Source: Promethearchaeia archaeon (GTDB lineage: Archaea; Asgardarchaeota; Lokiarchaeia; Sigyniarchaeales; SOKP01). From it: a stretch of 64,000 bases of DNA. The notes under the pieces are model-generated. The model was given only the letters and a program-made list of their open reading frames with translations, ran no database searches and had not been told where the DNA came from. This document shows, piece after piece, positions 12,568 through 30,659 of the stretch (its first letter is position 1; the number at the start of each line of letters is the position of its first letter). The position numbers were made by a program, and so were the translations under genes. Location of the stretch: positions 1 to 64,000 of the forward strand of contig JAWOCD010000005.1 in the NCBI GenBank assembly GCA_046483985.1, given 5' to 3'.

Positions 12568-13452
12568 ATGGTTGAAGTAGAACAGAATCTCCAGATGAAT
12601 CTTTGTCCAGAATGTGGTGGTAGTGTAGTATCTACTCACCAACGGGGAGAAATTGTATGTAGAAAATGTGGTCTCGTAGTGAGTGAAAGAGAAATAGATC
12701 TTAACCATAGTGGGGTAAGAGCATATAGTAAACAGGAAAAAGATAAAAAAGCAAGAACGGGAAGTCCTATTTCTATACTTATGCCCGATATTGGCTTAAG
12801 TACGGTCATAGATCGCTCAAAAATAAAAAACCCCGATCTACGCCGAGCCGCTAAATGGAATACTCATATGAGCTGGAAAAATAGAAACATGCTGATAGCA
12901 ATAACGGAATTGAAACGAATCGGAAGTAACTTGAACATTCCGACACGGGTTTTAAAGGCAACAGTTCATTTATATAAAAAAGTATTTGGACGAAATCTAT
13001 TAAGAGGAAGATCTATAAATGGGATGATTACTGCTTGTGCGTACTATAAATGCAAAGAAGAGAAAATTCCTATTACTATGCAAGAAATTTTAGATGAAGC
13101 ATCCATTAATTCTAATATTGTAAAAAAATGCTATAAAGTTTTAGTGAGAGAATTTAATTTACAGACTCATCATTTAGATCCCATCTCATTGATCCCTCGA
13201 TATTGTGCTGAGCTTGGCTTGGGAATTGAGGTTGAAAAATCAACAATTAATTTGCTTAAAAAATTTCTCTCTGAAGCTTCTATTTGCGGAAAAGATCCCA
13301 AGGGATTATGTGCAGGAGCGCTCTATTTAATTGCTAAGTTAAAAAATCAGAAAGTAAGCCAAAAAGAAATTTCAAAAATGGTTAATGTTACGGAGGTAAC
13401 ACTACGCTCTCGCTATAAGGAATTATTAAACCACGTTAGTTTTAAATTCTAA
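12568..13452 (+). CDS. tfb: Transcription initiation factor IIB (divergent paralog)
   Basis: CPECG..GEIVCRKCGLV zinc ribbon; LLRGRSI; GKDPKGLCAGALY; SQKEIS..VTEVTLRSRYKEL. Confidence 0.93.
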   Translation: MVEVEQNLQMNLCPECGGSVVSTHQRGEIVCRKCGLVVSEREIDLNHSGVRAYSKQEKDKKARTGSPISILMPDIGLSTVIDRSKIKNPDLRRAAKWNTHMSWKNRNMLIAITELKRIGSNLNIPTRVLKATVHLYKKVFGRNLLRGRSINGMITACAYYKCKEEKIPITMQEILDEASINSNIVKKCYKVLVREFNLQTHHLDPISLIPRYCAELGLGIEVEKSTINLLKKFLSEASICGKDPKGLCAGALYLIAKLKNQKVSQKEISKMVNVTEVTLRSRYKELLNHVSFKF

Positions 13453-23417: not shown

Positions 23418-24248
23418 TTAATCCTTTAATAAATCAAAAACAAATTCAAAATCTGAAAAATTAAAAGGTTTCAAGATATAGCCGTCCGCTCCGGTTTCTT
23501 CCAATTTTTCTTTTACTTCCGTCCCGGCTACTCCCGTGAGGTAATATACCTTAATATCTTTATACTCTTCATCCGATTTTATCTTTTTACAAATATCGTA
23601 TCCACTCAGATCCGGAAGAATGATGTCCAATAAAATTAATTTAGGCTTTCCATTTTTCAATTCTTCCATTCCCCTTGCTCCCGATACGATTCCCTTTACG
23701 GTAAACCCTTTACTTTCGAAAAAGCTTTTTATTAATCGAACAGTACTCAGGTCATCCTCGATTAAAAGGATATCATATTCCGTGTCCTTCTGTTTCATAT
23801 TATCTAAAAAATTAATGATTCTTTTTTCTAATGAGATGCTCTGGTCGAATATATTTTGAATTGTCTCATGTACATCTTCGTTCAGGTTATTTCCATAATT
23901 CTCTAAAACGAGTTGTGCATATCCCTTAATTGAAGTAAGGGGCTCTTTTAATGCATGAGAGATATTTGACATTTTTTCGGTGTTTATATTTCCAGAGAGC
24001 ATCTCTTTATTATAGTTCTTAATATAATTTTTCACGCTTTTTCTGATTAAATTCGAGATAGTGGAATAATTCTCGCTTTTCTCTATGAATTTAATCCATT
24101 CTTCCTTCATATCTTCTTTTACATACAGAGAAATCCGTTCCTTATTCCGATTATATACTTTCTCTCCCTTTAGCCACCGTTTATAATTTTCCGTCACAAC
24201 TCCACGCCATATCGCATGCTTTCCGGTCTTTTCCTCATATTCCATCAT
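23418..24248 (-). CDS. Response regulator with N-terminal W-rich module, RHH-like domain, HisKA-type DHp and C-terminal REC
   Basis: RISLYV..MKEEW...TISNLIRKSV; SHALKEPLTSIKG; LLIEDD, LLDIILPD, LTG, KPF; frame stays open upstream to 24369. Confidence 0.85.
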   Translation of the reverse strand: MMEYEEKTGKHAIWRGVVTENYKRWLKGEKVYNRNKERISLYVKEDMKEEWIKFIEKSENYSTISNLIRKSVKNYIKNYNKEMLSGNINTEKMSNISHALKEPLTSIKGYAQLVLENYGNNLNEDVHETIQNIFDQSISLEKRIINFLDNMKQKDTEYDILLIEDDLSTVRLIKSFFESKGFTVKGIVSGARGMEELKNGKPKLILLDIILPDLSGYDICKKIKSDEEYKDIKVYYLTGVAGTEVKEKLEETGADGYILKPFNFSDFEFVFDLLKD

Positions 24249-24662
24249 TTTTGGGGTTTTCTTGGGTGATATTTTTTCATATTGATCCTCCTGGTTGTTT
24301 TTTTGGGAAGAGTCTTTTTTTCCTTCTTTCTTTGGGCCGTCTTCGTCTATCTTTTTATCACCTGAAAATTATTCTTATTATATTGTTTTGGAGACTATAT
24401 TAAATTTTTCTGACTGTTCAAATAATATTCTTCTTTTTTATAAACATATCGGATTCGAAAAAGGATTACATCTAATCACAGTTTATTCTTTAAAGTGCAG
24501 TAATCCAATTTGATCCAAAATTTTTAATTTTTGTTCTAGAGATTTAGACTAATACTTTTTATATATAAAACCTTATTATGTAGTGAATATTCTGTGGAAA
24601 AAAATATGACTTAGAAATATAATTTAGTAAAAACACTTTAACTTTAATTCTTTTTTAAAAAG

Positions 24663-25646
24663 ATGGGAAAAAATCAAGACTCCGACGGGAAAAAACCCTC
24701 GCCTTCAAAAAATGAGGAAGATATTACCGCGCAAAGAGAGAGAGATACGGATACTCTTAAAAGGCTTGAGGAGAAGAACGGAAATCTCACCGACGAAGAT
24801 AAAACAGAGGAAATGAAAAAGTATGAAGAGGAAACAGATAAGTTCGCGATTTGGAGGGGAAAAATAACAGAAGGATTTCGGAAATGGGTCAGGGGCGAAA
24901 AAATCTATGACTACGATAAAGAACGCATTTCCCTCTATGTTTCAGGAGATACAAAAGAAAAGTGGCAGAATTTTATTAACACCCATGGAGTCTCGACTAT
25001 ATCGAAACTAATTCGAGAGAGCGTAAACAAGAATATTGACAAAAAAACGAAGATCTATGGTTCATTCCGGGAAAAATCCGAAATGGATTTTCAATTACTT
25101 TCCAATTTTTCTCATTCGCTTAAGGAACCGTTGACAACCATAAAGGGGTTCAGTCAGCTCCTTATGGAAAATCATAAAGACGAATTAGAAGAGCCGGTTT
25201 TGAAGACGATAAAAAATATCTTCGAAAGTTCTAAGAAACTGGAACATAAAATTCGAAAAATGCTGGATGATATTATAGTAGAAAGTTCAGAATATGATAT
25301 TCTCTTGATTGAGGACGATCTAAGCACCATTAAACTTATAACCAGCTATTTTGAAAGTAAGGGCTATTCTTGCAAGGGGGTTGTCAGTGCTTCCAAAGGG
25401 TTGGAGGAGCTACGAAATTTCAAGCCCAAATTTATCTTACTCGATATTATTTTACCAGATAAAAGTGGATACGAGCTGTGCAAGCAGATCAAATCGGAGG
25501 AAGAGTATAAAGAAATCCCAGTCTTTTTATTAACTGCCATTCCCGCTGCGGAGGTGAAAGAGAAGTTGGAAGAAACCGGAGCGAACGGCTATATCTTGAA
25601 ACCTTTTGATTTCTCTGACTTTCAGATTTTATTTAAATATTTATAA
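24663..25646 (+). CDS. Paralogous response regulator (W-rich module, RHH-like, DHp, REC)
   Basis: RISLYV..TKEKW...TISKLIRESV; SHSLKEPLTTIKG; LLIEDD, LLDIILPD, LTA, KPF. Confidence 0.87.
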   Translation: MGKNQDSDGKKPSPSKNEEDITAQRERDTDTLKRLEEKNGNLTDEDKTEEMKKYEEETDKFAIWRGKITEGFRKWVRGEKIYDYDKERISLYVSGDTKEKWQNFINTHGVSTISKLIRESVNKNIDKKTKIYGSFREKSEMDFQLLSNFSHSLKEPLTTIKGFSQLLMENHKDELEEPVLKTIKNIFESSKKLEHKIRKMLDDIIVESSEYDILLIEDDLSTIKLITSYFESKGYSCKGVVSASKGLEELRNFKPKFILLDIILPDKSGYELCKQIKSEEEYKEIPVFLLTAIPAAEVKEKLEETGANGYILKPFDFSDFQILFKYL

Positions 25647-26399: not shown

Positions 26400-26882
26400 T
26401 TATTCCGAGATTATTTCAAAAACCATCTTTTCAATTATAGGTTTCTTGGTATACCGCTTATCGTAATACCAGCCCACTAAATGCGCTTTCTGGTCCTTCT
26501 CCTCAATCTCAGGGATAACAATGATCATTACCCCATTACTCAGATACTTTAAAACTCGTTTATCTATTTCGTGCAACTTTTCATTGCCAGACGGGTGGGA
26601 ATGCCATTGCCATACAATATCTACATCCCGTTCTTCTTTAAATTTGCGCATGTTATAGATCTTTGACTTTTTATACCGCATCCAACTGCTTGGCTTCTGG
26701 TGGCCCTTGGTTTTGTCTATGTCGGAATTCATGATATACTTTTTGCAGATTCCGAAATTTTCCTTTCTGTCCGCAAACAACCATCCATGTACAATATAGG
26801 GAAGTTCTTCCTTTGCTTTTTCGGTAATCTCTTCAAAAAGGCTTTGTGGTATCAGATAGCGAAAATCGTCAGCGCTGCCCAT
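26400..26882 (-). CDS. JAB/MPN (Mov34) domain protein with atypical JAMM motif
   Basis: WQWHSHPSGNEKLHEID; ggtga SD upstream of ATG. Confidence 0.85.
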   Translation of the reverse strand: MGSADDFRYLIPQSLFEEITEKAKEELPYIVHGWLFADRKENFGICKKYIMNSDIDKTKGHQKPSSWMRYKKSKIYNMRKFKEERDVDIVWQWHSHPSGNEKLHEIDKRVLKYLSNGVMIIVIPEIEEKDQKAHLVGWYYDKRYTKKPIIEKMVFEIISE

Positions 26883-27137: not shown

Positions 27138-27253
27138 GCTCAGGTCGCTTAGCTTGGTAGAGCGCTGGTCTGCTAAACCAGTATCCTACGGATGCGCGGG
27201 TTCGAAGCAAAAATGCGTCTCGCGTTTTTTCGAGACTCCCGTCCTGAGCGCCA
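27138..27253 (+). tRNA. tRNA-Ser (GCT) with 30-nt non-canonical intron at position 59/60 (27207-27236); CCA encoded
   Basis: GCTCAGG/CCTGAGC acceptor stem; CTGGT CT GCT AA ACCAG; removing 27207-27236 restores the GCGGG TTCGAAT CCCGT T-arm; BHB-like junction. Confidence 0.9.
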
Positions 27254-30281: not shown

Positions 30282-30659
30282 ATGGAGGAACTAGAACAAA
30301 AATTTGAAGAGATGTGTGATGATCTCAAGGAATATGAAGGGGTAAAGGAAGCGTTTTTGTTAAATAATGAAGGGAATGTGCTTTTTAAATCAAATAATTT
30401 TGAACTTTCCAACGAAGAATCGCGGGCAATCCTACAAGCGTGGAAAGATAAAAAACCAGCCCTAAATTATCGTAATGCGCGATATGCCGTCTTAAAAAAT
30501 GACGAAATCCAACTCGCTGCAAAAAATGTCTCCAATGGGAAGGGAATCGCAGGTTCCGTGACCAAGGATGGAAATTACCTTATAATTCAAACAGAACAAG
30601 ATTCCGGTATGATTCTCTTGGAGTGGTCGATATTTGTAAACAAGGTCGCATGGACATAA
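30282..30659 (+). CDS. Profilin (Asgard eukaryotic-signature protein)
   Basis: 125 aa; AFLLNNEGNVLFKSNNFELSNEESRAILQAW...LNYRNARYAVLKNDE matches the profilin pattern AIxgxdGxvwaxSxxFxlxxeExxaixxaF...lxxxGxkYxvlrxdd. Confidence 0.8.
   Translation: MEELEQKFEEMCDDLKEYEGVKEAFLLNNEGNVLFKSNNFELSNEESRAILQAWKDKKPALNYRNARYAVLKNDEIQLAAKNVSNGKGIAGSVTKDGNYLIIQTEQDSGMILLEWSIFVNKVAWT

Follow-up and report, generated by a model that had tools for sequence, protein, structure and literature searches.

What kind of regulator joins a DNA-binding fold, the hairpin of a histidine kinase and a receiver domain in a single chain, and how might such a protein be switched? The question is raised by two head-to-head genes in a 64,000-nucleotide stretch of Promethearchaeia archaeon DNA (assembly GCA_046483985.1, contig JAWOCD010000005.1, positions 1 to 64,000; hereafter the window). 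The genes encode paralogs, P0001 (23418-24248, minus strand; an open reading frame [ORF] of 276 aa with HisKA and Response_reg and no HATPase) and P0002 (24663-25646, plus strand; 327 aa as the longest ORF, conserved core from M51 at 24813), which are 56% identical over 278 aa (E 4e-111). From N to C terminus, each carries a tryptophan-rich (W-rich) module, a ribbon-helix-helix (RHH) segment, a HisKA hairpin without HATPase, and an intact receiver (REC). Judging from sequence, we consider it fairly likely that both are dimeric RHH regulators, held together by the dimerization and histidine phosphotransfer (DHp) hairpin, whose DNA binding is switched by receiver phosphorylation from orphan kinases.

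The four-part layout, set out in a preliminary description of the window, is present in both ORFs as described, as seen in the reading frames, Pfam matches, motifs, and alignment. Pfam places HisKA in P0001 and P0002 at E 5e-9 and 2e-9 (36-38 bits; cutoff 26.9) and Response_reg at E 6e-21 and 2.4e-20, leaving the first ~90 residues of both proteins without assignment, and neither Pfam nor NCBIfam finds HATPase_c in either protein. NCBIfam matches span the receiver alone or the hairpin plus receiver: the best is to the hybrid kinase HrmK, far under the cutoff, and those to PhoB, OmpR, and similar regulators, also far under their cutoffs, cover the receiver only. Full-length homologs (55-80% identity), with titles such as "response regulator" of Lokiarchaeota or Promethearchaeota, all have HisKA and REC. 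Homolog start methionines align with M51 of P0002 (window 24813) in nearly all cases; residues 1-50 of P0002 form an acidic stretch that is variable or missing among homologs. In the AlphaFold2 model of P0001 (mean predicted local distance difference test [pLDDT] 77), the DHp helices span residues 90-121 and 124-151, with the receiver directly after.

The preliminary description had ranked the pair as a candidate for an undescribed system, a claim that does not hold: the RHH-HisKA-REC design is already in the census of Galperin, Makarova, Wolf, and Koonin (2018, J Bacteriol, PMC5847659), which lists "Arc-type RHH-HisKA-REC" proteins for Lokiarchaeum sp. GC14_75 as response regulator. That entry is a single sentence, with nothing on the N-terminal module, paralog lineages, synteny, or function (PMC5847659), and a 2023 paper tabulates one such protein merely as "HisKA; REC". 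The architecture is genuine but was listed before, and P0001 and P0002, from the same lineage and with the same domain order, carry all three features of the class: a predicted N-terminal RHH, a HisKA without HATPase_c, and a C-terminal receiver with its catalytic Asp, Thr, and Lys. Added here beyond the 2018 census are an old duplication, a narrow distribution, H-box variants shared with kinases, residue conservation, and a mobile module.

Four kinds of evidence strongly concur in predicting an RHH fold for the second segment (P0001 residues 34-80, 24009-24149, minus strand, with strand KERISLYV and helices at 45-57 and 64-80; in P0002, by alignment, 24912-25049, plus strand). We aligned the N-terminal 95 residues of 39 sequences; the resulting profile matches P0002 at 24813-25082 (E 5e-40). 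Compared by hhalign with the RHH_1 proteins of this genome, the alignment pairs at 87% probability (E 3.7e-6, columns 37-79), covering the strand (ERISLYV) and both helices. Scanned member by member, 18/39 of its sequences match Pfam RHH_1 (best E 3.7e-4). Against PDB sequences the profile gives weak matches (E ~0.3), mostly to CopG/Arc/MetJ-type proteins over columns 35-81, with ribosomal protein S1, not an RHH protein, in the top row. The AlphaFold2 model of the N-terminal part (pLDDT 83.5) has an extended segment at 36-43 and helices at 45-57 and 64-84; its strand is unpaired, as one would expect in a monomer model of an RHH. Foldseek finds nothing for this model at E ≤ 0.001, its top rows being RHH antitoxins, and in an exhaustive VIA-align search over 48,161 chains the first 16 places are almost all RHH proteins, including ParD2 (Z 5.0), TacA, NikR, the PutA RHH, CopA, and Arc (residues 34-91; Z 4-5; root-mean-square deviation [rmsd] 1.2-2.3 Å over 44-52 residues). 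Several of these were solved with DNA, among them the PutA RHH with operator DNA (rmsd 1.2 Å over 44 residues). The KERISLYV...TIS.LIR segment is near-invariant among homologs, and the K-E-R-I-S-L-Y-V strand is identical in the consensus of both paralog lineages described below. The earlier suggestion that this segment resembles RHH is therefore upheld by hhalign, RHH_1, the PDB profile, and the structural searches alike.

The receivers look fully functional in their sequence motifs. In P0001 the domain occupies residues 159-270 (23439-23774, minus strand; phospho-acceptor D208, codon 23625-23627), and in P0002 it lies at 25299-25622 (plus strand; a Response_reg match in the genome scan; phospho-acceptor D261, codon 25443-25445). 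Both have the E-D pair, the phospho-acceptor D208/D261, T, Y, and K-P-F, and both domains end in G-Y-I-L-K-P-F, a CheY-type switch motif with the switch Tyr. Across 119 family copies, over which residue conservation was counted in P0001 numbering, D165, D208, and K260 are present in 119/119 and T238 in 118/119. In the model the P0001 receiver (pLDDT ~90) begins 8 residues past DHp helix 2, and Foldseek with the full P0001 model returns receivers only, with E 1e-10 to RpaA, DivK, and RR468.

Between the RHH segment and the receiver lies the HisKA hairpin (P0001 residues 90-151, 23796-23981, minus strand, with a genome HisKA match at 23802-23972 and His98 at codon 23955-23957; P0002 25092-25268, plus strand, also a genome HisKA match, with His151 at codon 25113-25115). 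The H-boxes of the pair are SHALKEPLTSIKG and SHSLKEPLTTIKG (H-A-L-K-E-P and H-S-L-K-E-P), neither of which reads as the canonical H-E/D-x-x-T/N-P. The His is conserved among orthologs, being kept in 115/119 copies (Y in two copies of the upstream lineage, R once, Q once), as are E at H+4 (114/119) and P at H+5 (113/119). The two Tyr-bearing copies (ISYVLKEAL; L055 807-1637 and L056 8659-9489) have partners of the downstream lineage that retain the His, and all their receiver residues are intact. The replacements at H+1 and H+4 noted in the preliminary description are real in both paralogs but are not restricted to proteins without a kinase domain. The usual reading in complete kinases of this genome is SHELRTPL or SHELKTPLTSI, and some of its ORFs with HATPase have A at H+1 (THALKTPL) or E at H+4 (SHDLQEPL). 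Such substitutions are thus natural variants of working kinases here and, because complete kinases carry them, are no mark that kinase or phosphatase chemistry has been lost.

A census of two-component proteins in this genome, which is 97% complete, gives ~26 HATPase_c matches, 21 HisKA matches, 12 receivers, and no Hpt match. About eight of the receivers stand alone, one is N-terminal on a kinase, one lies beside a gene for the transcription factor TFB, and two are those of P0001 and P0002, the genome's only receiver proteins with a recognizable DNA-binding domain. The earlier remark that no kinase is nearby is borne out, with no HATPase_c match on the window's contig. A relay fed by hybrid kinases was considered and rejected: no kinase in the genome bears a C-terminal receiver, and only one has an N-terminal receiver. 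A second TFB-receiver adjacency is found at C13:15000-18000, where the gene for a 287-aa TFB paralog immediately precedes, in the same orientation, that for a protein of 282 aa whose N-terminal part is a receiver and whose C-terminal domain (~170 aa) is without assignment. DNA-binding response regulators are rare among archaea (Galperin et al. 2018, PMC5847659). Because the pair supplies the only receivers with a DNA-binding domain in a genome with ~20 sensor kinases, it is the obvious path by which sensing would reach transcription in Lokiarchaeales, the order to which the cultured Asgard archaea belong.

The best reading of these data, because the RHH is supported, the His is conserved, and the receiver looks functional, would be a phosphorylation-controlled DNA-binding regulator, and in this form the "phosphorelay-controlled transcription factor" proposed earlier is partly supported. 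Each chain would pair permanently through a DHp four-helix bundle, and this pairing would unite two RHH halves into one DNA-reading beta-ribbon. The C-terminal receiver would be phosphorylated at D208 or D261 by sensor kinases encoded elsewhere (~20 kinases for 12 receivers, none nearby). Phosphorylation would then alter DNA binding, probably via receiver-receiver or receiver-DHp contacts that change oligomer state or RHH geometry. The conserved H-box could serve as a docking and phosphoryl-exchange surface for a receiver, either the protein's own or a stand-alone one, and the N-terminal W-rich module could be a separate docking or binding tag. Given identical strand residues and near-identical DHp cores, the paralogs probably recognize the same operators, and mixed dimers may form.

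Several points weigh against this account. The AlphaFold2 model is of a monomer only (predicted template modeling score 0.47), from which the arrangement of the domains is not derivable. Taken singly, the RHH matches score low (Foldseek E > 1, VIA Z no higher than 5.0), as is to be expected of a domain of 45 residues. Four of the 119 copies have Y, R, or Q in place of the His, so its role is not absolutely required. No conserved or convincing operator was found in the window, a literature search found no experimental work on RHH-HisKA-REC proteins, and mixed dimers, which may form, are purely what we infer.

Relatives sought in species-representative genomes gave 370 stretches. The best 66 of these loci, used for layout, are Asgard contigs, and non-Asgard matches cover the receiver alone. 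Among 53 paired loci, 50 are tandem (250-500 bp gap), two are convergent, and the window alone is divergent; one further sampled genome (G168) also looks divergent from its coordinates. In a tree of the 119 copies, the upstream copies form one 53-row clade (support 99) that includes P0001. The rows nearest P0002 are all downstream copies, and no well-supported branch encloses it. P0001 thus groups with the upstream lineage and P0002 with the downstream lineage, two orthologous lineages. Since they are paired in 50+ loci, the duplication is old and both copies have been retained. The head-to-head layout, by contrast, is a local rearrangement given that 50/53 paired loci are tandem, and the idea that the divergent pair acts as a switch on a shared promoter is not backed by conservation.

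Identity between the lineage consensuses is 85% in the W-rich module, 66% in the RHH, 81% in the DHp, and 84% in the receiver, and the DHp core shows nothing that would obviously bar mixed dimers. Only four differences between the lineages are fixed: positions 110 (H+12, Y/F), 173 (receiver helix 1, I/L), 236 (F/L), and 263 (K+3, N/D). Three of the four sit on what we take to be the classical kinase-regulator docking interface (cf. HK853-RR468 and EnvZ-OmpR), which hints, though weakly, at contact between the hairpin and a receiver.

Such contacts would also fit a phosphorelay within a single chain, in effect Spo0B and Spo0A in one protein. Here a stand-alone, Spo0F-like receiver would pass phosphate to His98 and from there to D208, in cis or within the dimer, and the DHp would be the histidine phosphotransferase that the genome otherwise lacks. 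The conservation of the His (115/119) within a near-invariant H-box, the lack of an Hpt domain in a 97%-complete genome, and the presence of ~8 stand-alone receivers are all consistent with this, as is the location of the lineage differences, which fall in DHp helix 1 (H+12), receiver helix 1, and the beta5-alpha5 loop. However, these lineage-specific changes are conservative (Y/F, I/L), four copies with Y, R, or Q in place of the His keep a perfect receiver, and a relay is not called for by any kinase of the genome, none of which has a C-terminal receiver. A direct route from kinase to receiver is simpler, and we regard a single-chain relay as unlikely. Whether the hairpin only dimerizes or also relays phosphate matters, as the answer would reveal a novel design for a response regulator.

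The family is narrowly distributed. We sampled 68 genomes of the window's GTDB family and 233 from 29 other families of the phylum with the N-terminal profile (E ≤ 1e-10), finding the regulator in 62/68 of the former and in none of the 233 other Asgard genomes. Many genomes have 3-9 copies; the window's genome has just P0001 and P0002. NCBI titles naming Thor-, Hermod-, and Hodarchaeota had pointed to an Asgard-wide spread, which we reject, as the GTDB-based sample puts every match in one family. The seven loci so titled (L008, L017, L024, L027, L037, L046, and L052) clash with the GTDB tally, and we treat their names cautiously. A tandem pair (~60% identity) on DATKTW010000106.1 (L014), titled "Candidatus Nanopelagicaceae bacterium", is nearly identical to that of L013, and the contig is probably a mis-binned or mislabeled Asgard contig.

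The W-rich module has a different distribution from the regulators that carry it. It occupies residues 1-33 of P0001 (24150-24248, minus strand; core Y-E-x-E-T-G-K-x-A-I-W-R-G-x-x-T-x-x-F/Y-x-x-W) and 24813-24911 of P0002 (plus strand; by profile match and alignment), and is modeled with a helix at 2-8, a hairpin at 13-18, and a helix at 20-26 (pLDDT ~91). The preliminary description called it a conserved unknown module, and it is indeed near-invariant in homologs; it is not private to these regulators but found on many unrelated proteins. In the same genome, one copy closes the 979-aa RNA polymerase A′, another opens an ABC ATPase, two close a single leucine-rich repeat (LRR) protein, and further copies lie in small ORFs. 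Searched against 1.84 billion representatives, a profile of its 33 positions matches 388 clusters (61 at E ≤ 1e-10); some proteins have 3-8 copies, and the fusion partners include Arf/Ras GTPases, LRR proteins, a NosD-type membrane protein, and the Rpb1 domain 4/5 subunit. ESM Atlas has similar N termini on ABC, MoxR-type AAA+, and LRR clusters, all Asgard. The module is present in 68/68 genomes of the window's family and 6/7 of a sister family in the same order, and in none of the 226 other Asgard genomes sampled. It is thus a mobile module confined to one archaeal order.

Some individual proteins with the module also deserve mention. RNA polymerase A′ (C115:3777-6713; Pfam Rpb1 domains 1-5) has a ~100-aa K/E-rich tail followed by one module. 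The metagenome proteins P0122-P0126 have an N-terminal domain and 3-8 tandem modules with K-rich linkers between them; Pfam has no match in P0122 or P0126 and two sub-threshold matches in P0123. P0136 (415 aa) combines an Arf-type GTPase, one module, and a receiver very like those of the pair, without RHH or hairpin, and arose either by domain shuffling or as an assembly chimera. In one protein, Pfam weakly matches the module to the N-terminal domain of RNase H1 (Cauli_VI; E 0.0016 over 16 residues), which is a lead only.

The pair normally lies in a conserved block of genes. A TFB gene is found ~700 bp upstream of the upstream copy and divergent from it (neighbor cluster in 50 loci, 48 upstream and divergent) and a Prok-JAB gene ~500 bp downstream (43 loci); farther out are DUF2110, profilin, proteasome alpha, SBDS, GatD/GatE, L2, and Elp3. 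The window keeps the same block genes, rearranged: Elp3 abuts P0001, three tRNA genes separate P0002 from the remaining block, and the Prok-JAB/MPN gene (26400-26882, minus strand; Pfam Prok-JAB E 3e-4, under the gathering score) is inverted relative to the common layout. TFB (TFIIB; 12568-13452, plus strand; Pfam TFIIB and Zn_Ribbon_TF) is displaced by ~10 kb from the pair, so the link to TFB, of which the genome has ~10 paralogs, is frequent but not obligatory. A profilin-like gene (30282-30659; Pfam Profilin E 5e-5, just under the cutoff) corresponds to a block member found downstream in 33 loci. A candidate tRNA at 27138-27253, among tRNA-Lys, tRNA-Ser, and tRNA-Val, was missed by ARAGORN and has a sub-threshold Rfam tRNA match at 27138-27209 (24 bits). 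Its 5′ GCTCAG pairs with CTGAGC, which is followed by GCCA, near 27245-27253, so it probably has an intron or insertion.

The module and this neighborhood bear on a further alternative, in which the regulators are polymerase-associated adaptors. The W-rich module would dock them to a hub also bound by the tail of RNA polymerase A′, and the RHH would mainly dimerize and not be primarily sequence-specific. The 979-aa RNA polymerase A′ of this genome does end in the same module, the module is on many signaling proteins, and the pair is normally beside a TFB gene. However, the synteny block consists of housekeeping genes and may lack functional meaning, and the outward residues of the RHH strand (K, R, S, Y) are invariant, as base reading would predict; we regard such an adaptor as distinctly improbable. 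In a broader version, the module would be a docking tag through which these regulators, small GTPases, LRR proteins, ATPases, and the tail of RNA polymerase A′ meet one common partner or bind each other, and the RHH-DHp-REC pair would be a heterodimeric His-Asp relay that hands two-component signals straight to the transcription machinery. We give this version little credence; if true, archaea closely related to eukaryotes would have a recruitment system based on the polymerase tail. The occurrence of one mobile module on both the pair and the RNA polymerase A′ tail offers the more surprising lead.

Least probable is that the DHp, which has no ATPase, joins that of a complete kinase, so that the protein is phosphorylated in trans by the kinase's catalytic domain or blocks the kinase: the H-box SHALKEPLTSIKGY is nearest to SHELKTPLTSIHG and AHELKTPLTSIYGY of complete kinases in the same genome, and the best NCBIfam matches are the hybrid kinases HrmK, ArcB, and BarA (which points to an ancestral hybrid kinase whose ATPase was lost), but the pair has no conserved kinase neighbor in 50+ loci, DHp dimers are usually specific, and the RHH requires a symmetric partner that a kinase would not supply.

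A DNA-binding regulator switched by phosphorylation, the reading we favor, would have operators, and we searched for them around the pair. The divergent intergenic region spans 24249-24812, of which 24249-24662 is non-coding and 24663-24812 is the optional acidic extension of P0002; its repeats look like chance matches in AT-rich DNA and were set aside. Between the two genes of the 50 tandem loci, k-mer enrichment gives TTTACAAAA and TGTAAAAAA in 23/50 and 20/50, respectively, with 7/412 among control intergenic pieces. The enriched word adjoins a TATA-like A-run and the loci share descent; the word may be a promoter element. A palindrome derived from it (TGTAA-N4-TTACA) fits only seven loci and was discarded, and, by reading, the word was not seen in the window's own intergenic region.

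The pair resembles several known systems in part. It differs from sensor histidine kinases of the HisKA class in that HATPase_c is absent; its H-boxes also depart from the canonical form, which alone does not discriminate. Closer in content are archaeal REC-PAS/GAF-HisKA regulators without HATPase such as A. fulgidus AF_1472, whose HisKA is predicted to serve in dimerization (Galperin et al. 2018, PMC5847659). These are likewise receiver proteins with a kinase-less HisKA, but their domain order is reversed and they have no DNA-binding domain. Regulators of the OmpR, NarL, and LytTR types also have the opposite order, with an N-terminal receiver ahead of a winged-helix, HTH, or LytTR output, and the DNA-binding domain here is instead an RHH. 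That segment shares with CopG, Arc, MetJ, NikR, and ParD the strand-helix-helix form and a helix B opening with S/T-x-S-x-L-I-R, whereas those proteins are usually small repressors or antitoxins controlled by a ligand or partner toxin and not fused to a receiver. The hairpin is unlike the monomeric four-helix HPt fold (PF01627), with no Hpt match in P0001 or P0002. As in Caulobacter DivL, the DHp could be a receiver-docking surface, and DivL has Tyr at the H-box His, as do the copies in L055 and L056. Unlike the pair, however, DivL retains an ATPase domain and lacks one for DNA binding; the likeness is a resemblance only. With Spo0B and ChpT the pair shares a DHp-like hairpin with a conserved His and no working ATPase, which could shuttle phosphate between receivers. 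Spo0B and ChpT, however, are separate proteins that retain a degenerate catalytic-like domain; in P0001 and P0002 that domain is absent, the receiver follows directly after the hairpin, and hairpin, receiver, and DNA-binding domain are fused in one chain.

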